NCBI GenBank assembly: GCA_017414715.1
Contig: JAFQKV010000061.1
Span: forward strand, 1 to 55,207
Reading direction: 5' to 3'
Source of the DNA: Clostridia bacterium
Lineage (GTDB): Bacteria > Bacillota > Clostridia > Oscillospirales > QAMX01
Length of the DNA: 55,207 nt
This document shows positions 17,921 to 48,334 of this stretch, piece by piece. The first letter of the stretch is position 1. Each line of letters opens with the position of its first letter. Under the pieces are notes generated by a model, which was given only the letters and a program-made list of their open reading frames with translations, was not told where the DNA came from and ran no database searches. The translations under genes were made by a program, and so were the position numbers.

Positions 17921-18048
17921 TTCACATCACCTCTTCCACATTTTATCACATTTTCGATCCCGTGTCATTTTCTCTTGAATTTTTCAGGGTATTTGCGTAT
18001 AATGAAATCACAGACTGCATTGATTCAACAGAATATGAGGTGACATTT

Positions 18049-19125
18049 ATGTTCTTTGCAAATCCCATGGGCGATCTCTCCCGAATGACAAATGCCGTTA
18101 CACGCTCCATTTCCAGCGAGAACCCCACCGGTGCCAAGGGAGTCGGCGGCTCCTGTCCCGTCGGAGAGGGTTTCTCCTCCAGTCAGGCCAGAGATCTGGG
18201 ACTCGGCTGGAAGGTCAATCCCTGCACAGGCGTTGGCCCCGGCGAGATCCTGACCCTTGCGGATATTGAGGGGCCCGGCTGCATCACCCAGATCTGGACC
18301 ACCCTGACCGGCACTTTCCGCAACTGGATTCTGCGCATCTACTGGGAGGACAGCGAGGTGCCTTCCGTGGAATGTCCTGCCGGTGACTTCTTCTGCAACG
18401 GATGGAACAGGTATGCCCCGGTCGTTTCCCTGCCTGTCTGCGTCAATCCCGGCCGTGCCTTCAACTGCTATTGGCAGATGCCCTTCCGCAAGCGATGCCG
18501 CATCACCATCGAAAATCTCTCCGACAAGCAGGAGGTCATTTACTATCAGATCAACTATGAGCTGCGCGAGGTTCCCGAGGACTGCGCTTATTTCCATGCC
18601 CAGTTCCGCCGCTCAAATCCCCTGCCCTATAAGTCCGTCCACACCATTCTGGACGGAGTCACCGGTAAAGGACAGTATGTAGGCACCTACATGGCCTGGG
18701 GTGTCAATAACTGCGGTTGGTGGGGCGAGGGTGAGATCAAATTCTATATGGACGGTGACCGGGAATTTCCCACCGTCTGCGGCACCGGTACGGAGGACTA
18801 TTTCTGCGGTTCTTATAACTTTGAAAACCAGCAGACCCACCAGTACGAGGTCTTTACAACACCCTACGCAGGTCTCTGTCAGGTCATCCGTCCCGACGGC
18901 CTTTATTCCTCCCAGCAGCGGTTCGGACTCTACCGGTGGCACATCACCGATCCCATCCGCTTCTCCGAAGACCTGCGTGTGACCATTCAGGCACTCGGCT
19001 GGCGCAGCGGCGGCCGGTATCTGCCCCTGCAGGACGATATTTCCTCCGTGGCCTTCTGGTATCAGGACAAGCCCGCAAAAAAAATGTCCGCCCTTCCCGA
19101 CCGTGACGGTCTGGAAATCATCTGA
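18049..19125 (+). CDS. DUF2961 / glycoside hydrolase family 172 protein
   Basis: Start chosen at the ATG at 18049 (MFFANPMGDL...), after GAGGTGA. The sequence pattern (SSENPTG, ITQIWTT, YWQMPF, GEGEIKFYMDG, GTGTEDYF, YRWH) is as I remember for DUF2961. Confidence 0.8.
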   Translation: MFFANPMGDLSRMTNAVTRSISSENPTGAKGVGGSCPVGEGFSSSQARDLGLGWKVNPCTGVGPGEILTLADIEGPGCITQIWTTLTGTFRNWILRIYWEDSEVPSVECPAGDFFCNGWNRYAPVVSLPVCVNPGRAFNCYWQMPFRKRCRITIENLSDKQEVIYYQINYELREVPEDCAYFHAQFRRSNPLPYKSVHTILDGVTGKGQYVGTYMAWGVNNCGWWGEGEIKFYMDGDREFPTVCGTGTEDYFCGSYNFENQQTHQYEVFTTPYAGLCQVIRPDGLYSSQQRFGLYRWHITDPIRFSEDLRVTIQALGWRSGGRYLPLQDDISSVAFWYQDKPAKKMSALPDRDGLEII

Positions 19126-19134
19126 TATGCAAAA

Positions 19135-19166
19135 TCCCGGCCGGAGTCCCTCCGACCGGGATTTTT
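19135..19166 (+). terminator. intrinsic terminator after the GH172 gene
   Basis: TCCCGGCCGGA-GTCCC-TCCGACCGGGA (one mismatch) followed by TTTTT. Confidence 0.7.
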
Positions 19167-19191
19167 CTGTGCAGAAAGGTACGAAAACGCA

Positions 19192-19221
19192 TTGACCTTA
19201 CCGCCATGTTTGGTATATAAT
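19192..19221 (+). promoter_or_regulatory. candidate sigma-A promoter of fucI-araB
   Basis: TTGACC (19192-19197), 18-nt spacer, TATAAT (19216-19221), 56 nt before the fucI ATG. Confidence 0.5.
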
Positions 19222-19277
19222 AACAGAAGCACAGCTTACTTGAAAAAATATTTATATTTTCTTTTGGAGGTACAACT

Positions 19278-21065
19278 ATGAAGAATCTTATCGGTTCCTA
19301 TCCCAAGATCGGTATCCGTCCCATCATCGACGGCCGCCGCAAGGGCATCCGCGAGTCCCTTGAGGATAAGACCGCCGGTCTTGCCAAGGCTGTTGCGGAT
19401 CTGCTCAGCGCAAATCTCCGCTACCCCGACGGCTCTCCCGTGCAGTGCGTCATTGCAGACAAGACCATCGGCGGTGTTGCCGAGGCTGCCCTCTGTGAGT
19501 CCAAATTTGAGAAGGAGAACGTCGGACTGACCATCTCCGTCACCCCCTGCTGGTGCTACGGTACCGAGACTCTGGACATGCATCCCACCCGCCCCAAGGC
19601 TATCTTCGGCTTTAACGGCACCGAGCGTCCCGGCGCAGTTTATCTTGCTGCCGCTCTCGCTGCCCACAATCACAGAGGTCTGCCCGCCTTCTCCATCTAC
19701 GGTCATGAGGTGCAGGATCTCGCCGACAACACCATCCCCGAGGATGCTGCCGAGAAGCTGCTTGCCTTTGCCCGCGCCGGTCTCGCCGTCGCCATCATGA
19801 AGGGCAAGAGCTATCTCGCCATGGGTACCGTTTCCATGGGTATCGCAGGCTCTATCGTTAACGATAACTTCCTGTATGACTATCTCGGCATGCGCACCGA
19901 GTACATCGACCTCTGCGAGTTTGACCGCCGCATGGAGCAGGGCATCTATGACAAGGCCGAGTACAAGAAGGCTCTTGCCTGGGTCAAGGAGAATTGCCCC
20001 GAGGGTGAGGACCGCAACGTTCCCGAGAAGCAGCACACCCGCAAGCAGAAGGACAAGGAGTGGGAGACTTGCGTCAAGATGACCCTCATCGCCCGCGATC
20101 TGATGGAAGGCAATCCCAAGCTTGCCCGTATGGGTTACATCGAAGAGTCCAACGGTCACAACGCCATCGCCGCCGGTTTCCAGGGTCAGCGCCAGTGGAC
20201 CGACTTCCGTCCCAACGGTGACTTCCTCGAGGCTATGCTCAACTCCTCCTTCGACTGGAACGGCGTGCGCGCTCCCTACATCGTCGCCACTGAGAACGAC
20301 AGCTACAACGGCATCTCCCAGCTCTTCGGCTATCTGCTGACCAACGCTCCCGCCATCTTTGCCGACGTCCGCACCTACTGGAGCCCCGAGTCCGTCAAGC
20401 GCGTTACCGGTTATGACCTCGAGGGTGATGCCGCCGGCGGTATCATCCACCTCATCAACTCCGGCGCTGCCGCTCTGGACGGCACCGGCGAGATGGAAGT
20501 CAACGGCAAGCCCGGCATGAAGCCCTTCTGGGAGATCAGCGCCGAAGAGGCCGACAAGTGCCTGAAGGCCACCAAGTGGAGCCCCGCAGCCACCGACTAC
20601 TTCCGCGGCGGCGGATTCTCCTCCTCCCTGACCACCCGCGGCGGTATGCCCGTGACCATGGTCCGCATCAACAACGTCAAGGGTCTCGGCCCTGTCCTTC
20701 AGATCGCCGAGGGTGTCAGCTGCGACCTGCCCGAGGATGTTCACACCGCCCTTATGGACCGCACCGATCCCACCTGGCCCTGCACCTGGTTTGCTCCCCG
20801 TCTGACCGGTGAGGGTGCCTTCAAGGATGTTTACTCCGTCATGGCCAACTGGGGTGCCAACCACGGTGCCTTCTGCTACGGCCACGTCGGCGCAGACTTC
20901 ATCACCCTCGCTTCCATGCTGCGCATCCCCGTGAGCATGCACAACGTTCCCGACGAGAAGATCTACCGTCCCACCGCATGGGGCGCCTTTGGCACCAAGG
21001 ATCTCGAGGGTGCGGACTACCGTGCCTGCGCCACCTACGGTCCTCTCTACAACGGCATCAAGTAA
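19278..21065 (+). CDS. fucI: L-fucose isomerase family protein (FucI; the family also has D-arabinose isomerase activity)
   Basis: 595 aa, colinear with E. coli FucI over its whole length ([68 protein letters not shown]). RBS GGAGGT upstream. Confidence 0.95.
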
Positions 21066-21086
21066 GATTTAAGGAGCCATAAAACC

Positions 21087-22757
21087 ATGGCAAAATACAG
21101 TATCGGACTCGATTTCGGCACCCTCAGCGGCCGTGCGCTGCTGGTGGACGTGGTTACCGGCGAGGAGCTTGCCACCGCGGTGATGAATTACCCTCATGCC
21201 GTGATGGATGAATACCTTCCCGACGGTACCACCCGTCTTGCACCCGACTGGGCTTTGCAGCATCCCAGGGATTACCTTGAGGTCGTTGCAAAGGTCATTC
21301 CCGAGGTTCTCACTGCGGCCTCCGTTCAGGCGGAGGACGTGGTGGGCGTTTCCATCGACTTCACGGCCTGCACCGTGCTGCCCATCCTCGCAGACGGAAC
21401 GCCTCTCTGCTTCCTGCCGGAGTACGCCGGCAATCCCCACGCCTACGTCAAGCTCTGGAAGCATCATGCCGCCCAGGACAAGGCGGAGATCATCAACCGC
21501 AAGGCTGAGGAGACCGGCGAGAAGTGGCTTGCCCGCTACGGCGGCAAGGTCTCTTCCGAGTGGATCTTCCCCAAAATCTGGCAGACCCTGGATGAAGCTC
21601 CCGAGATCTATGAGAAGGCTGCCCACTTCATTGAGGCCGGCGACTGGCTGACCATGCAGCTCACCGGCAAGCTCACCCGCAACGCCTGCGCCGCAGGCTA
21701 TAAGGCCATCTGGAGCAAGAAGGACGGTTTCCCCTCCTCCGAGTTCTTCAAGTCCCTCGACCCGAAGCTGGAGAACGTCGTTGCCGACAAGCTCTCCGGT
21801 CCCATCCTCGCCATCGGCGACAAGGCCGGCGAGATCAATGCCGCCGGTGCCGCTCTCACGGGCCTGAAGCCCGGCACCGCCGTCGGCGTTGCCAACATCG
21901 ATGCCCACGTGGCAGTTCCCGCCCCCGGCATCACCACCCCCGGCACCATGCTCATCATCATGGGCACCTCCTCCTGCCATATGCTGCTTGGCGATACCGA
22001 GGTCAACGTACCCGGCATCTGCGGCGTGGTGGAGGACGGTATCATCGGCGGCTATCTCGGCTACGAAGCCGGACAGTCCTGTGTCGGTGACCATTTTGAC
22101 TGGTTTGTGAGAAACTGCGTGCCCGCAAGCTATCACGAGGCTGCTGCCGCCGAGGGCGTTAACATTCACACCTATCTGACCGAAAAGGCAAAGAAGCTTT
22201 CCGTCGGTGAATCCGGTCTTATTGCACTGGATTGGTGGAACGGCAACCGCTCCGTGCTGGTCGATGTGGATTTGACGGGCGTTATGCTCGGCATGACCCT
22301 CACCACCAAGCCCGAGGAGATCTACCGCGCCCTCATCGAGGCAACTGCCTTCGGTACCCGTAAGATCATCGAGACCTTTGAGAAAGGCGGCGTGCACATC
22401 GAGCGCATCATCGCCGCCGGCGGCATTGCCGAGAAGAACGAGCTTATGATGCAGATCTATTCCGACGTCTGCAACCGTGAGATCGGCATCTCGGGCAGCC
22501 CCCAGGCCTGCGCCCTCGGCTCCGCCATGTTCGGTGCCGTGGCCGCCGGCAAGGAAAACGGCGGCTGGGATACCATCGGCGAAGCCGCCGAGCATATGTC
22601 CAAGCTCAAGGACACCTTGTATGTACCCAATGCAAGCAATGTTTCTGCCTACGATGCTCTTTATGCAGAGTATGAGACACTGCACGATTACTTTGGCCGC
22701 GGCGTAAACGATGTTATGAAGCGTCTGAAGGCCATCAAGAAGCAGGCCCGTGCCTGA
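21087..22757 (+). CDS. araB: ribulokinase (AraB-type FGGY kinase)
   Basis: 556 aa. The N-terminus [27 protein letters not shown] and the later DWALQHP, IDFTACT and [15 protein letters not shown] closely parallel Bacillus AraB. RBS AAGGAG upstream. Confidence 0.92.
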
Positions 22758-22776
22758 CTTTTACAACTGACCCTCT

Positions 22777-22812
22777 CACGGGCCGGGGCATCCCGGCCCG
22801 TGAAGCCCTTTT
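22777..22812 (+). terminator. hairpin/terminator after araB
   Basis: CACGGGCCGGG-GCAT-CCCGGCCCGTG (11 bp) followed by AAGCCCTTTTA. The U-tract is modest. Confidence 0.55.
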
Positions 22813-22828
22813 ATCGGAGAACATACCA

Positions 22829-24001
22829 ATGGATATCAAAGAAAAAGCACTCCTTGCTCATGCCGAGTGGCAGGGTAAGCTCGAAGTCACAAGCCGCGTG
22901 TCCGTCACGTGTGCCGAGGAACTTTCCGTTGCCTATACCCCCGGCGTTGCCGAACCCTGCCGTGCCATTCAGGCCGACCCCGACCTCTCCTATTCCCTGA
23001 CACGCCGTCACAATCTGGTGGCCGTCGTAACCGACGGCACCGCGGTTCTCGGTCTGGGGGATATCGGTCCCGAGGCCGGTATGCCGGTGATGGAGGGCAA
23101 ATGCGTGCTCTTCAAAACCTTTGCCGGTGTGGATGCCTTCCCTCTCTGCATCCGCTCCAAGGATCCCGACGAGATTGTCCGCACCGTCAGCCTGCTTGCC
23201 GGCTCCTTTGGCGGCATCAATCTGGAGGATATCTCTGCCCCCCGCTGCTTTGAGATCGAGGAAAAGCTCAAGGCCGTTTGCGACATTCCCGTTTTTCACG
23301 ACGATCAGCACGGCACCGCTGTGGTGGTGCTCGCCGCCATGCTCAATGCCTGCCGTCTCACCGGCCGTCCCCTCTCGGAGCATCGCGCCGTGGTCTGCGG
23401 TGCCGGTGCCGCCGGAACAGCTATCACAAAGCTGCTTCTCTCCCGCGGACTTTCCGACGTTACCGTCTGTGATAAGGACGGCATCGTTTATTCCGGCAGA
23501 CCGGAAAACGGCGCAGCTCTCGAGGAGCTGGCACAGCTGACCAATCCCCGTGATCTGCGCGGAACACTTTCCGATGCCGTGCGCGATGCCTCCCTCTTCA
23601 TCGGCGTTTCCGCCCCCGGCGTGCTGACCCCCGACATGGTCAGGACGATGGCGACCGATCCCATCATCTTTGCCATGGCAAACCCTGTGCCCGAGATCAT
23701 GCCCGAGGCTGCCCGCGCCGCCGGTGCTGCCGTTGTCGGCACGGGTCGCTCCGACCACCCAAATCAGATCAACAATGTTCTTGCCTTCCCCGGCATTTTC
23801 CGCGGTGCCCTGGACGTTCGCGCACGCACCATTAACGACGAGATGAAGATCGCCGCCGCAGAGGCCATCGCAGCGCTCATTCCCGATGCGGAGCTCACGG
23901 CAGACTACATTCTGCCTGCCGCCTTTGACCCCCGGGTCGGTCCCGCCGTGGCCAGAGCCGTTGCAGAAGCGGCACGGGCCACCGGCGTTGCGCGGTTGTG
24001 A
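22829..24001 (+). CDS. NAD(P)-dependent malic enzyme (short form)
   Basis: 390 aa. AYTPGVA, VTDGTAVLGLGDIG, PVMEGK, FGGINLEDI and the Rossmann motif VVCGAGAAG. Confidence 0.92.
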   Translation: MDIKEKALLAHAEWQGKLEVTSRVSVTCAEELSVAYTPGVAEPCRAIQADPDLSYSLTRRHNLVAVVTDGTAVLGLGDIGPEAGMPVMEGKCVLFKTFAGVDAFPLCIRSKDPDEIVRTVSLLAGSFGGINLEDISAPRCFEIEEKLKAVCDIPVFHDDQHGTAVVVLAAMLNACRLTGRPLSEHRAVVCGAGAAGTAITKLLLSRGLSDVTVCDKDGIVYSGRPENGAALEELAQLTNPRDLRGTLSDAVRDASLFIGVSAPGVLTPDMVRTMATDPIIFAMANPVPEIMPEAARAAGAAVVGTGRSDHPNQINNVLAFPGIFRGALDVRARTINDEMKIAAAEAIAALIPDAELTADYILPAAFDPRVGPAVARAVAEAARATGVARL

Positions 24002-24399
24002 CCATGGCAAGAAAAAAGCCGACCCCCGTCGGCGACGATGCCGTTTACACCGTCAATCTTGAGGAGGGTCTTCCCCTCTGTCACGAGGCCATCAACCGCC
24101 TCAAGCACGAGCTGGAGGCCGCAGGTGAGCGCGGTGTCGGCGTGATGAAGCTCATCCACGGGTACGGCTCCTCCGGCACCGGCGGAAGACTGCGGATCGC
24201 CGTACGGCGGCATCTGGACGGCTGCAGGCTCAACGGTTTTATAGCAGATTATATCGAGGGGGAGCACTTTGATATCTTCGATGCCCGTACACAGAAGGCT
24301 CTGCAGGCCTACCCCGAGCTTGCCCGGGATCGGGATCTGCAGCGGCATAACAACGGCATCACGGTGGTGCTTTTAAACTGCGTCAAAAAGACACGGTAA
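23998..24399 (+). CDS. Smr-domain protein
   Basis: 133 aa. LIHGYGSSGTGG resembles the Smr H-G-x-G core. The GTG at 23998 overlaps the malic-enzyme stop, and the ATG at 24004 is an alternative start. Confidence 0.65.
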   Translation: MTMARKKPTPVGDDAVYTVNLEEGLPLCHEAINRLKHELEAAGERGVGVMKLIHGYGSSGTGGRLRIAVRRHLDGCRLNGFIADYIEGEHFDIFDARTQKALQAYPELARDRDLQRHNNGITVVLLNCVKKTR

Positions 24400-24420
24400 T
24401 TCCGTGTCTTTTCTCGTTTT
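24387..24420 (+). terminator. intrinsic terminator after the Smr gene
   Basis: AAAGACACGG-TAATT-CCGTGTCTTT followed by TCTCGTTTT. The stop codon lies in the loop. Confidence 0.75.
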
Positions 24421-24480
24421 GACCTTTACTTTCAACATGAAATAGTGTTACAATAAACAAAACCGCAAGGAGGTTCTGAT

Positions 24481-26658
24481 ATGACTTTCAAGGAGCTTTT
24501 CGGCAACGCCGCATGGGTAACACCGGGCGAGACCTGCGTTGCCCCCTATATGCGCAAGATCTTTACCGCAGGCACGCCCGAGCGTGCCGAGCTGACCATC
24601 TGCGGTCTCGGTCATTTTGAAGGCTTTATCAACGGAGCCCGCATTTCCGAGGATCTGTTTGCCCCCGCCGTCAGCGATTACGAGCCAATGCCCGAGCGCG
24701 TGTGTGAGGAGCGCTTCGGCGAGGAGACCGCTCACCGCGTTTACGTTATGCGCTACGATGTGACCGATCTGCTGCGCGAGGGTGAAAACTGCCTTGGCCT
24801 TCGACTCTATCCCGGCTGGTACGGCCATCGCTGCGACCGTACCACAAAGCTCGTCTTCCGTCTGGTTATCCGCAGCGGTAACGATGTCATTACCGTTTGC
24901 TCCGATACCGATATACGCTGGTGCAGAAGCGAGATCACAGAAACCGACTATGTCCGTGCCGAACATCAGGATGCCGCCTTCCTTGCCGAAGGCTTCTCAA
25001 AGCCGGATTTTGATGACGCCGCATGGAAATCTGCCGTCCTCTGCGCAGGTCCCGAGGGCCCCTTCTATATCCAGACCTCTCCTGCCGACCGTGTTATCCG
25101 CCACATCCGGCCCCGGCGCATCGGCACCACCGCAGACGGTGCCGCCCTCTACGATGCCGGTGAGAACATCACCGGCTGGCCGGTACTGCGCGAGACCGGC
25201 AGCACACCGCAGACCATCATCCTCACCATGTCCGAAAACCTCTGCGGCGGTGAGCTGGACCCGACCCGGATCCACAGGCAGATCTGCTCCTATAAGACCG
25301 ACGGCAAGGGCCGTACCTGGCGCAGCCGTTCTCTATGGCACGGCTTCCGTTATTTCACGGTGGCGGGCGAAGCCGAGTGCAGCGACGTTCTCGTCGTGCA
25401 CGCCAACGTTCCCGTAACCGCTGAATTTTCCTGCTCCGATCCGGTGCTCAACTGGATCTATGATGCCTACGTCCGCACCCAGCTTTGCAATATGCACGGC
25501 GGCATCCCCTCCGACTGCCCCCATATCGAGCGCCGCGGATATACCGGCGACGGACAGCTGGCCTGCCCGGCTGCAATGGCAATTCTCGATGCAAAGGAGT
25601 TCTACCGCCGCTGGATCGGCGATATTTCCGACTGTCAGGACCGCAAGTCCGGTCACGTGCAGTACACTGCTCCCTACGTACATTCCGGCGGCGGCCCCGG
25701 CGGCTGGGGCTGCGCGATCGCAGAGCTTCCCTGGCAGTTCTGGAAGGCCTACGGGGATGCCGCGCCCGCAAAGGAGCTCTATCCGCAGATGCTCCACTAC
25801 TTTGATTATCTTGAGGCTCACAGCGAAAACGGTCTCGTTGTCTCCGATCAGCCGGGCGAATGGTGTCTCGGTGACTGGTGTACCCCCGATACGATCGCCA
25901 TTCCCGCGCCCTACGTCAACACCTATTTCTACGTAAAGACTCTTCGCCGCGTGCGCGAGATCGCGCTGCTTTGCGGCGATATCGACGGCGAGCGCACCCT
26001 CGCGGCCCGCGAGGCGGAAAAGATCGCTGCTCTGAAAGCAAACTACCTCGACGAGACCACGGGCAACTGGTGTGAAAATGTGCAGGGCGCAAACCTCTTT
26101 GCTCTGGATCTCGGCATTACCGACGATCGTGCGCTGGATACCGTCGTTTCCCACTACAGCGCAACCCGCAAGCTTGACACCGGCATTTTCGGTACCGACC
26201 TGCTCTTCAAGGTGCTTATCGATCATGGCTATGCCGAGCTTGCCTTTGATATTCTCTGCGGCCGGGAGGCTCCCTCCTTCGGTCACTGGTTGGAGCTTGG
26301 TGCCACCACCCTGTACGAGGAATGGAAGGACGAGGCCCGTTCCCTCTCTCATCCGATGTTCGGTGCTGTAGTGCAGTACTTCTTCTCACATCTTCTCGGT
26401 ATCCGTCAGGCAGCGGACTCCTTCGGTTATGCGGATATCATCATCTCCCCTGTCTTCAGCCGCCGCATTCCCAGTGCCCGCGGATCTCAGCTGACCGCCG
26501 CAGGAAAAGTCTCCGTTGACTGGCGCTTCTTTGAAGAGGATATCCACCTCACCGTTGAGCTTGATGCCGGTATGAACGCGACCCTTCGGTTTGCAGATGA
26601 GGAATTCGTACTCTCTGCCGGAAAAAATGAGTTTATCCTCCCGGCAGACAGAATCTAA
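24481..26658 (+). CDS. alpha-L-rhamnosidase family protein (GH78)
   Basis: 725 aa with RBS AAGGAGG. The motif IPSDCPHIERRGYTGDGQ is conserved in the GH78 (alpha/alpha)6 catalytic domain, and the protein ends in a beta-sandwich. Confidence 0.88.
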   Translation: MTFKELFGNAAWVTPGETCVAPYMRKIFTAGTPERAELTICGLGHFEGFINGARISEDLFAPAVSDYEPMPERVCEERFGEETAHRVYVMRYDVTDLLREGENCLGLRLYPGWYGHRCDRTTKLVFRLVIRSGNDVITVCSDTDIRWCRSEITETDYVRAEHQDAAFLAEGFSKPDFDDAAWKSAVLCAGPEGPFYIQTSPADRVIRHIRPRRIGTTADGAALYDAGENITGWPVLRETGSTPQTIILTMSENLCGGELDPTRIHRQICSYKTDGKGRTWRSRSLWHGFRYFTVAGEAECSDVLVVHANVPVTAEFSCSDPVLNWIYDAYVRTQLCNMHGGIPSDCPHIERRGYTGDGQLACPAAMAILDAKEFYRRWIGDISDCQDRKSGHVQYTAPYVHSGGGPGGWGCAIAELPWQFWKAYGDAAPAKELYPQMLHYFDYLEAHSENGLVVSDQPGEWCLGDWCTPDTIAIPAPYVNTYFYVKTLRRVREIALLCGDIDGERTLAAREAEKIAALKANYLDETTGNWCENVQGANLFALDLGITDDRALDTVVSHYSATRKLDTGIFGTDLLFKVLIDHGYAELAFDILCGREAPSFGHWLELGATTLYEEWKDEARSLSHPMFGAVVQYFFSHLLGIRQAADSFGYADIIISPVFSRRIPSARGSQLTAAGKVSVDWRFFEEDIHLTVELDAGMNATLRFADEEFVLSAGKNEFILPADRI

Positions 26659-26689
26659 CGGTTAACGTGTAAGAAAGGACTACTGAAAC

Positions 26690-29302
26690 ATGGCTCTGCA
26701 GATTTACGGACTGACCTGCGAATACATGCAAAATCCCATCGGCATCGATGAGAAGAACCCCCGCCTATCCTATAAGCTTCGCTCCGACGAGCCCGGCTGT
26801 TATCAGACCGCCAGACGTCTTGAAGTGTCGCTTTGTGAGGATTTCTCCGTTCTCTGCGCCGATTCCGGCTTTATCGAGGACGACAATACTCTCTTTATCG
26901 AAACCGGACTGAAGCTTTCCCCCTGCACCCGGTACTGCTACCGCTTTACCGTCCGTGACAATCTCGGACGCGAGGCCGTTTCCGAGCCTGCCTTTTTTGA
27001 GACCGGACTTCTCGGCACGGCATGGCGCGCAAAGTGGATCTCCCGCCCCGACGAAAACGCCGGAGATGATGTCGTTCCCCGCTATATGCGCACCTTCCGC
27101 CTTGCCGAGGCCCCGTCCAAGGCACGGCTTTACATCACTGCCTGCGGTGTTTACCGTGCCCAGCTCAACGGCGAGTACGTTGCCCCCGATCTGCTGGCCC
27201 CCGGCTACACAAGCTATAACAAGCACCATCAGTACCAGACCTACGATGTGACCGAGCTTCTGAAAACCGGCAAAAACGAGCTTTCCGCCATCGTCGGACC
27301 AGGCTGGTTCACCGGAAACCTCATCGGCAAGAACCGCCGGAACATTTACGGCGACCGTACGGCGCTGCTCTGCCGCCTCGACATGACCTTTGCCGACGGA
27401 CGGGTCCGCCGCATCGTCTCCGACGGAAAATTCACCTGGGCGGAGAGCGAGGTGCTCTACTCCCAGATCTATCACGGCGAGGATATCGATGCCCGCCGTA
27501 CCGATATGCCTGAAAACTCCGTTGCCATCCTTGACCGCGGCTTTGATATGCTCGTCGGTCAGCAGATGCAGGCCGTACGACCTATTGAGGAAATCGAGCC
27601 CATTGCGCTCATCACCACCCCGAAGGGTGAGCGCGTGCTGGACTTCGGACAGAACATGGTCGGCTTTGTCCGCGTACGCGTCAAGGCCCCTGCCGGCCGC
27701 GAGATCCGTCTGCGCCACTTTGAGGTACTGGATAAGGACGGAAATGCCTACTTTGAAAACTATCGCACCGCCCGCGCAGTTGCCTCCTACATCACCTCCG
27801 GTGGAGAGGACGTTTTCGAGGCACTGCTGACCTTCTACGGCTTCCGCTACGTATCCGTCGATGCCTTCCCCGGCGAGCCCGCTCTGGAAAATTTCACCGG
27901 CGTAGTCATTCATTCCGAGCTTGAACCCACCAACGAGTTCTCCTGCTCCCATGCGCTGCTCAACCAGCTGCAGCACAACATCCTCTGGGGACAGAAGGGA
28001 AACTTTGTTGACCTGCCCACTGACTGCCCGCAGCGAGACGAGCGTCTCGGCTGGACGGGTGATGCCCAGGTCTTTGCCTCCACCGCCCTGCAGAATATGC
28101 AGTGCGGCGCCTTCTTCACCAAGTGGTTTGGGGATGTGCGTGTCGATCAAACGGAGGAGGGCGCTGTAACCATCATCGTCCCCAACTCCATGATCAAAAA
28201 GAATGCCTCCAACGCCTGGAGCGACTGCGTCACCATCATTCCCACGGATATATGGCAGGCCTACGGAGACAAGCGAATTCTCCGCGACAACTACCCCGCC
28301 ATGAAGAAGTGGGTCGGCTATATGAAGAACTGGGGCGACGATCCCTACACCTTCAACGGTCATTTCCAGTTCGGCGACTGGCTGGGACTTGACGGGGACA
28401 GCAGCACCTGCAACGGCGGTACCTCCACAGAGCTTATTGCCAACGCCTTCTATGCCTATTCCACCCGGCTTACCGCCGAGACCGCCGAGATCCTTGGATA
28501 CACCGCCGACGCGAAGAAATACCGCAATCTCTACAAAAATATCCGTGCAGCCTTCAACCGTGACTTTGTCACCCCCGGTGGACGCCTTGCCGCAGGTCCC
28601 CGCAACCAGACCGCTTTTATTCTCGCCATCTGGTTTGATCTTGTGGACGGAAAAGCATTGGAGCACTGCAAAAAGGAGCTTATCGCCTCCCTCCGACTCT
28701 CCGGGAACCACCTGACCACCGGTTTCGTCGGCACACCCTATCTCTGCCACACCTTCTCCCATATCGGCGAGGAAGACCGCGCCTTCGGGCTTCTGCTGCA
28801 GGAGACCTTCCCCTCCTGGCTCTTCTCCGTGCGCATGGGTGCCACCACCATGTGGGAGCACTGGGACGGCATCCGCCCCGACGGCACCTTCTGGTCCCCC
28901 ACCATGAACTCCTACAACCACTATGCCTACGGCTCCATCGGCAACTGGATGTACCGCCACATCGGCGGTATCGGTCTCCGCAAGGATTCCCCTGCCTACA
29001 AGGTCTTTGATATCGCTCCCTCCGTGGGTGGCGGCGGTCTGACCGAGGCGTCCATCCGCTTTGAATCCGTCCGCGGCACCATCGGCTGCAGCTGGACTCT
29101 TACGGACGGCACCGCTGCGCTGAAGGTCTCCGTGCCTGCAAACACCGAGGCAAATTTCACCCCCTATCGCTGTGCCGATCCGGGGGCCGTGCAGATCCTC
29201 CAGAACGGCAAGCCCTTTGCCGCCACGGGTGAATGCACCCGTCTCCCCTCCGGTGAATACGAGATCACCTATCCCGTGCTTCCCGTTGAGGAAAAAAAGT
29301 AA
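26690..29302 (+). CDS. alpha-L-rhamnosidase (GH78)
   Basis: 870 aa. The N-terminus LTCEYMQNPIGID is typical of the rhamnosidase N-domain. DLPTDCPQRDERLGWTGDAQVF and WEHWDG are also present. Confidence 0.92.
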   Translation: MALQIYGLTCEYMQNPIGIDEKNPRLSYKLRSDEPGCYQTARRLEVSLCEDFSVLCADSGFIEDDNTLFIETGLKLSPCTRYCYRFTVRDNLGREAVSEPAFFETGLLGTAWRAKWISRPDENAGDDVVPRYMRTFRLAEAPSKARLYITACGVYRAQLNGEYVAPDLLAPGYTSYNKHHQYQTYDVTELLKTGKNELSAIVGPGWFTGNLIGKNRRNIYGDRTALLCRLDMTFADGRVRRIVSDGKFTWAESEVLYSQIYHGEDIDARRTDMPENSVAILDRGFDMLVGQQMQAVRPIEEIEPIALITTPKGERVLDFGQNMVGFVRVRVKAPAGREIRLRHFEVLDKDGNAYFENYRTARAVASYITSGGEDVFEALLTFYGFRYVSVDAFPGEPALENFTGVVIHSELEPTNEFSCSHALLNQLQHNILWGQKGNFVDLPTDCPQRDERLGWTGDAQVFASTALQNMQCGAFFTKWFGDVRVDQTEEGAVTIIVPNSMIKKNASNAWSDCVTIIPTDIWQAYGDKRILRDNYPAMKKWVGYMKNWGDDPYTFNGHFQFGDWLGLDGDSSTCNGGTSTELIANAFYAYSTRLTAETAEILGYTADAKKYRNLYKNIRAAFNRDFVTPGGRLAAGPRNQTAFILAIWFDLVDGKALEHCKKELIASLRLSGNHLTTGFVGTPYLCHTFSHIGEEDRAFGLLLQETFPSWLFSVRMGATTMWEHWDGIRPDGTFWSPTMNSYNHYAYGSIGNWMYRHIGGIGLRKDSPAYKVFDIAPSVGGGGLTEASIRFESVRGTIGCSWTLTDGTAALKVSVPANTEANFTPYRCADPGAVQILQNGKPFAATGECTRLPSGEYEITYPVLPVEEKK

Positions 29303-48082: not shown

Positions 48083-48156
48083 GCGGGTGTAGTTCAATGG
48101 TAGAATCCCAGCCTTCCAAGCTGGTCGTGTGGGTTCGATTCCCATCACCCGCTCCA
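48083..48156 (+). tRNA. tRNA-Gly (anticodon UCC)
   Basis: Cloverleaf read by hand: acceptor GCGGGTG/CACCCGC, anticodon stem CCAGC/GCTGG with loop CTTCCAA, T-loop TTCGATT, encoded CCA. Confidence 0.95.
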
Positions 48157-48176
48157 AACGCACACTGCGTTGACAT

Positions 48177-48253
<77 letters not shown>

Positions 48254-48256
48254 TAT

Positions 48257-48334
48257 GGTGGATGTAGCTCAGCTGGTTAGAGTATCAGGTTGTGGCCCTG
48301 AGGGTCGTCGGTTCGAACCCGATCATCCACCCCA
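48257..48334 (+). tRNA. tRNA-His (anticodon GUG)
   Basis: An extra 5' G(-1) is opposite C73. Acceptor GTGGATG/CATCCAC, anticodon loop TTGTGGC, T-loop TTCGAAC, encoded CCA. Confidence 0.95.

Follow-up and report, generated by a model that had tools for sequence, protein, structure and literature searches.

What does a gut clostridium gain from a gene for an L-fucose isomerase-family protein paired with a gene for an L-ribulokinase-type protein, behind a gene for a GH172 glycosidase? The question is raised by a 55,207-nucleotide stretch of DNA from a Clostridia bacterium (assembly GCA_017414715.1, contig JAFQKV010000061.1), referred to here as the window, which is contig C32 of a 1.8-Mb metagenome-assembled genome (MAG) that is 92% complete (G000). 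A sequence-only reading of this DNA had proposed that GH172, fucI and araB together release, isomerize and phosphorylate D-arabinose. The three open reading frames sit where that reading had placed them, and profile scores agree with its identification of a GH172 protein, a full-length FucI homologue and an AraB-type kinase. Our analysis makes it quite likely that fucI and araB constitute a D-arabinose shunt, with or without GH172. The scheme as a whole, in which GH172 feeds the shunt and the kinase is shared with L-ribulose, is favored with moderate confidence.

According to this scheme, small α-D-arabinofuranosides would be imported, being scavenged and not released by the cell itself, and a cytoplasmic GH172 enzyme would trim terminal α-D-arabinofuranose to yield D-arabinose. 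FucI would turn D-arabinose into D-ribulose, which the AraB-type kinase would phosphorylate at C5; the D-ribulose 5-phosphate so formed would enter the pentose-phosphate pathway via Rpe, RpiB and transketolase. Since C5 phosphorylation gives D-ribulose 5-phosphate, neither an aldolase nor a 4-epimerase is needed. The same AraB would also phosphorylate the L-ribulose produced by AraA, thereby serving a kinase-less araA-araD cassette. What we determined is which genes are present, how they are ordered and distributed and which residues their products retain. Enzyme activities are taken from the literature on homologues, and we infer the in vivo substrate, the link between GH172 and the shunt, and the service of one kinase to both ribuloses.

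The isomerase is encoded by fucI (19278..21065, plus strand; 595 aa), which scores above the cut-offs of both TIGR01089 (1035 bits versus 850) and PRK10991 and contains all three FucI domains. Its best match in the Protein Data Bank (PDB) is the D-arabinose isomerase 3A9R. The protein is 65% identical to E. coli FucI and does not differ from it at any of 15 compared positions comprising metal ligands and substrate residues, with E339, D363 and H529 corresponding to the E. coli metal ligands E337, D361 and H528. A FucI of identical sequence is present in a metagenome contig of the European Nucleotide Archive (ENA). The preferred substrate pairs of FucI enzymes are L-fucose/L-fuculose and D-arabinose/D-ribulose (PMC6894278).

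The kinase gene araB (21087..22757, plus strand; 556 aa) scores above the cut-offs of the L-ribulokinase models TIGR01234 (768 bits versus 583) and PRK04123 (765 versus 428), below that of the FGGY pentulose kinase model TIGR01315 (210 versus 409) and far below that of the fuculokinase model TIGR02628 (46 versus 471). The best PDB match is the ribulokinase 3QDK, and A94, K206, D272 and E327 align with its ribulose-binding residues A96, K208, D274 and E329, of which A96 is named in PMC12307932. Judged by its sequence, the kinase is not a member of the dedicated D-ribulokinases (DarK, RbtK and RblK) but can work like one. D-ribulose is accepted by AraB as a substrate for phosphorylation in vitro as well as in vivo (PMC12307932). 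Similar kcat values on all four ketopentoses have also been reported for AraB.

The D-ribulose role is best supported by a comparison of G000 with 34 relatives (35 genomes). All genomes compared are MAGs, in which a gene that was not found is not thereby shown to be absent. Family members are labelled Oscillospiraceae or Eubacteriales, and one of them, G002, matches a Clostridia MAG from sheep rectum. Searches of the 34 relatives recovered araB from 32, fucI from 24, GH172 from 24 and classical araA from five. Adjacent fucI and araB genes occur in 13 of the 35 genomes and probably also in G015, where a contig break splits the pair. The kinases of these pairs cluster in the tree (SH-aLRT 87), a quick run with a long-branch outgroup that shows clustering, not direction. 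Particularly telling are four genomes of 96-98% completeness (G004, G017, G025 and G034) that carry fucI-araB and in which no araA, second FucI-like isomerase, araD or fucA was found, their class II aldolases being of the RhaD type or located beside rhaB. With no araA or araD found, L-ribulose 5-phosphate would be a dead end in these genomes, leaving D-ribulose as the evident substrate, and converting it to D-ribulose 5-phosphate would be the only evident job of the kinase there. Genera g7 and g9 lack fucI; all six of their genomes instead combine araB with a FucI-like isomerase of about 500 aa, and five also have araD. This comparison, drawn from draft genomes and related lineages, is the strongest evidence obtained here for the D-ribulose role. 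A further idea is that this family of gut Clostridia rewired pentose use around one AraB for both arabinose enantiomers, some members keeping the D-branch only; we put it forward tentatively and consider it rather doubtful. If true, it would imply a steady supply of D-arabinose in the guts of herbivores that is accessible without the known endo-D-arabinanases.

In line with the sequence-only reading, genome-wide searches placed no fucK, fucA, araA or araD on contig C32. Elsewhere in G000 the picture is mixed: fucA, fucK and fucU were not found anywhere in the genome, whereas araA and araD are located on contig C109, without araB or another kinase beside them. The same kinase-less cassette is found in both sister genomes, G001 and G002. 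Because araA-araD has no kinase of its own, the AraB described here probably serves as an L-ribulokinase as well. The comparative genomics of fucI-araB supports the D-arabinose reading well, while the earlier exclusion of L-arabinose is weakened. The five FGGY kinases of the genome are the present AraB, XylB, a RhaB-like protein and two unassigned members. The only other candidate L-ribulokinase is the FGGY kinase on contig C46, which has the lowest GC content in the assembly (2.3 kb; GC3 0.55 versus 0.75). Since none of G001, G002, G005, G012 and G030 yielded this type of kinase, we regard C46 as probably a contaminant or a recent gain; if C46 is genuine, the shared-kinase step would be weaker, in this genome only. 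The D-ribulose 5-phosphate formed by the shunt would have an outlet, as rpe, rpiB and transketolase genes are present. Contig C46 itself (L006, G000:C46:1-2258) carries a second araA fragment (81% identical) along with the different FGGY kinase and the start of an araD. On C109, a gene of the GH29 α-L-fucosidase family, an unexpected partner for an L-arabinose cassette, directly precedes araA-araD (L011:10635-14239), an order kept in all three genomes of the genus.

The GH172 (DUF2961) glycosidase gene (18049..19125, plus strand; 358 aa; PF11175, E 3.6e-98, 328 bits) had been suggested to encode a D-arabinofuranosidase, and the comparison with characterized members favors this. Its best PDB match is 8IC8, ExoMA1 of Microbacterium, with 416 bits over the full length, versus 148 bits for the fructofuranosidase αFFase1 (7V1V). 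Both catalytic glutamates and the adjacent Asp are retained (E227 in WWGEGE; E249-D250 in GTGTEDY), with a spacing close to that of E233/E254/D255 in DgGH172c. Moreover, N257 aligns with Asn253 of ExoMA1, where αFFase1 has Gly299; according to Shimokawa et al. (2023, PMC10509167), Asn253 prevents fructofuranosides from binding. Neither a signal peptide nor a hydrophobic N-terminal stretch was detected in the protein. Taken together, GH172 is predicted to be a cytoplasmic, ExoMA1-like exo-α-D-arabinofuranosidase.

Linkage of GH172 to the pair can be followed beyond G000. The order GH172-fucI-araB recurs in G002, where the two contigs concerned overlap by 47 bases, and in the metagenome locus L157, at 77-83% identity. 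Outside this group, the unrelated genome of L114 has the uninterrupted order GH172-GH183-GH183-araB-fucI, and its kinase falls on another branch of the tree; L101 has the order araB-FucI-like-GH172-GH172, and in L162 GH172 directly precedes araB. The three enzyme types have thus met more than once, while their link at the present locus is loose. L114 (9941-18293) and L116, from gut Clostridia MAGs (uncultured Eubacteriales and Candidatus Avimonas caecicola), each have GH172 followed by two GH183 genes and are probable D-arabinan loci in Clostridia. In a Lachnospiraceae MAG (L124:8916-14123), GH172 lies between two aldolase genes of the DHDPS family, followed by fucI.

The arrangement of promoters and hairpins bears on how the three genes are expressed. 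Upstream of GH172 is a putative sigma-70-type promoter (TTGAAT-17-TATAAT; 17975..18003, plus strand; 10 of 12 consensus positions), and its TATAAT is in the same position in G002 and L157. An ORF finder puts the start of the gene further upstream, at a GTG at 17962; the promoter-like site and a GAGGTG ribosome site at 18037-18042 make the ATG at 18049 the likely start. An intrinsic-terminator-like hairpin with a T run follows the gene (19131..19167, plus strand; RNAfold −24.8 kcal/mol, z −5.0), and none of 200 shuffled sequences was equally stable; a simple terminator scan gave no call for it. The fucI-araB pair is preceded by a near-consensus promoter (TTGACC-18-TATAAT; 19192..19221, plus strand; 11 of 12 positions), the top promoter match within 13 kb, and G002 and L157 retain both this promoter and the hairpin with its T run. 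Between fucI and araB there are 21 nt containing an AAGGAG ribosome site. A hairpin 3' of araB (22776..22803, plus strand; −27.8 kcal/mol, z −5.0), with a short U tract offset by about 5 nt, probably ends the two-gene unit ahead of the malic enzyme gene. The hairpins and promoters thus point to GH172 as a single-gene unit and fucI-araB as a separate two-gene unit, bearing out the earlier description of GH172 as having its own terminator, followed by a promoter.

Several observations weigh against the scheme as a whole. A terminator and a new promoter separate GH172 from fucI, and adjacency of GH172 to the pair is limited to G000, G002 and L157, i.e., the genus and one close relative. It was seen in none of the 11 other family genomes with the pair, and no GH172 was found in G004 and G017, which do have fucI-araB. 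Among 79 other close GH172 loci, fucI lies within 10 kb in two, and a full-length AraB-type kinase gene likewise in two. The unity of the proposed three-gene module is weakened by these separations. The genes flanking the locus (encoding a YgjP-like peptidase, a CE15-like esterase, ZupT, malic enzyme, an Smr protein and two GH78 proteins) include no regulator or sugar transporter. GH183 (PF13810) was not found in G000, in a search that gave no match in the control genomes either but did give one in G033; tblastn of the genome with the two GH183 proteins of L114 gave no match, and GH116 (PF04685) was not found in this genome either. With neither GH183 nor GH116 found, the organism does not match the published type of D-arabinan degrader, and as no transporter or regulator accompanies the genes either, the scheme does not account for where the substrate comes from or how it is taken up. 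Finally, the four GH29 fucosidase-like genes of G000, together with its rhaB and RhaEW-like aldolase genes, may provide a fucose route via promiscuous rhamnose enzymes.

These points lend themselves to other explanations. The shunt could be real and GH172 a chance neighbour, uncoupled from it and acting on another α-D-furanoside, in keeping with its own promoter and terminator, with an adjacency confined to one lineage and with the highly varied neighbours of GH172 at other loci. Furthermore, GH172 occurs in 12 of the 14 family genomes with the pair (G015 counted) versus 13 of the 21 without it, a small difference among related genomes. On the other hand, the product of an ExoMA1-type enzyme is the exact substrate of FucI, the gene order has been retained in three lineages down to 77% identity, and independent clusters unite GH172 with araB or fucI (L114, L101, L162 and L124); we therefore regard a chance association as unlikely. 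Roles could also be split, AraB being a displaced L-ribulokinase and FucI initiating L-fucose use that is finished by promiscuous RhaB and a RhaD or RhaEW aldolase. The kinase-less araA-araD behind a GH29 gene on C109 and the presence of the GH29-like, rhaB and RhaEW-like genes would fit this, as would the surroundings of 80 close AraB loci, 36 of which lie near an araD-like gene and five near fucI. Yet RhaD and FucA differ in stereoselectivity. The four near-complete genomes that retain fucI-araB, with no araA or araD found, leave no L-ribulose role there, and the RhaEW-like frame of G000 is broken by a stop. In PMC3870299, rha loci are given as the invariable location of RhaEW genes, and the assays described are on rhamnulose-1-P. 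In addition, the two class II aldolase-family genes of G000, and of both sister genomes, encode AraD and the RhaEW-like protein, and no enolase-family dehydratase for oxidative fucose breakdown was found in G000. A division of roles along these lines seems improbable to us.

Alternatively, the pair could handle another sugar, such as L-xylose, D-altrose, L-galactose or free D-ribulose. Judging from reference titles in PMC6894278, FucI enzymes also accept D-altrose and L-galactose, and the D-arabinan-degrading family GH183 was not found in 34 of the 35 family genomes. Against this, no L-xylulose-5-P 3-epimerase above cut-off was found in G000, free D-ribulose requires no isomerase, and AraB is a pentulose kinase to which no hexulose phosphate outlet is linked, so that we consider another sugar very unlikely. 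A D-arabinose shunt formed by fucI and araB remains the explanation that we prefer.

The chemistry of this shunt is already known, and so is the idea of release, isomerization and phosphorylation, which was not new when the sequence-only reading raised it: a scheme in which GH172, a putative isomerase and a kinase convert D-arabinose to D-ribulose 5-phosphate was drawn by Shimokawa et al. (2023, PMC10509167, Fig. 9b). Like the D-arabinan locus of Microbacterium arabinogalactanolyticum, the present locus has a cytoplasmic ExoMA1-type GH172 with the Asn determinant and an isomerase and kinase (putative in that case) leading toward D-ribulose 5-phosphate. It differs in that GH183 endo-arabinanases, GH116 and an ABC transporter are missing, GH172 is a separate unit and the host is a gut clostridium. 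Since GH183, GH116 and a transporter were not found, the locus resembles the catabolic tail of a D-arabinan locus while standing outside that class. PUL42 of Dysgonomonas gadei likewise combines the GH172 exo-α-D-arabinofuranosidase type with a fucose isomerase, and on D-arabinan this isomerase exceeds all other carbohydrate-active proteins in abundance (Al-Jourani et al. 2023, PMC10115798; Ross et al. bioRxiv 10.64898/2026.08.13.744632). PUL42, however, encodes three GH172 proteins predicted to be periplasmic as well as GH183, whereas the single GH172 of the present locus is cytoplasmic and comes without machinery for degrading the polymer.

The closest parallel to the pair itself comes from E. 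coli, where FucI and AraB speed growth of laboratory-evolved K-12 on D-arabinose (Guzman et al. 2019, PMC6452873) and enterohemorrhagic E. coli (EHEC) needs AraB for D-ribulose use (Cottam et al. 2025, PMC12307932). The two enzyme families and the chemistry are the same, with one AraB acting on L- and D-ribulose. In E. coli, however, the genes belong to separate fuc and ara operons and require a regulatory mutation or L-arabinose induction, whereas here fucI and araB form a native pair under a single promoter, and araA-araD is without a dedicated kinase. A FucI paired with a D-ribulose-phosphorylating kinase for D-arabinose metabolism is also known from the fuc locus of E. coli B, through insertion of the D-ribulokinase gene darK (Elsinghorst and Mortlock 1994, cited in PMC12307932). 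DarK is a dedicated FGGY D-ribulokinase, in contrast to the AraB-type kinase described here, and fucK, fucA and fucP are absent here. The locus also departs from the canonical fucPIKUA pathway, as FucK and FucA were not found, and from the canonical araBAD operon, with araA-araD on C109 and araB on C32.

A literature search joining GH172, D-arabinose and ribulokinase returned no paper. What is added here is the family-wide pairing of fucI and araB in gut Clostridia and, probably, a single kinase shared by both arabinose enantiomers; with chemistry and scheme already published, the gain is modest. It would extend D-arabinose use to common uncultured gut Clostridia, including those of ruminants, as a natural counterpart of the evolved E. 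coli FucI-AraB route, and it illustrates that the automatic labels 'L-fucose isomerase' and 'L-ribulokinase' can mislead. It also raises the testable question of how gut bacteria that have no enzymes for degrading D-arabinan come by D-arabinose.

Several neighbouring features were recorded along the way. In genus g3, fucI-araB is preceded by up to three GH43 genes, and at least one, whose products have a long N-terminal extension (L020, L025 and L026); their best PDB match is 5C0P, and they may be galactofuranosidases. In six relatives, a short-chain dehydrogenase/reductase (SDR) gene lies 3' of araB, its best PDB match being 4WUV (E 8e-99), an SDR of the mannonate-oxidoreductase type. A role of this SDR as ribitol dehydrogenase was considered and dropped, none being near the top of its PDB matches, and was not used as evidence. 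Nine family genomes encode a tandem two-domain class II aldolase of about 424 aa (L241:5130-6404, G007:C4), each half of which is 27-30% identical to FucA. The rhamnose run of G000 (L012:1026-14302, contig C36) comprises the RhaEW-like gene, rhaB, rhaA and a DeoR regulator together with a 2-oxoacid dehydrogenase complex (E2, E3 and a fused E1 alpha-beta), a zinc alcohol dehydrogenase and an unannotated 451-aa gene. Its RhaEW-like frame (L012:8230-10014, G000:C36:20229-22013) stops about 60 codons early, at 601 aa versus 659 aa in both sisters, with no indel in the gene, reflecting a strain mutation or an assembly error. In the window, araB is followed by genes for malic enzyme, a small Smr-domain protein and two GH78 rhamnosidase-family proteins (22829-29302), an order shared with G002, while in L157 an SDR replaces malic enzyme. 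Further downstream, three consecutive tRNA genes, Gly(TCC), Arg(TCT) and His(GTG), occupy positions 48083-48334.

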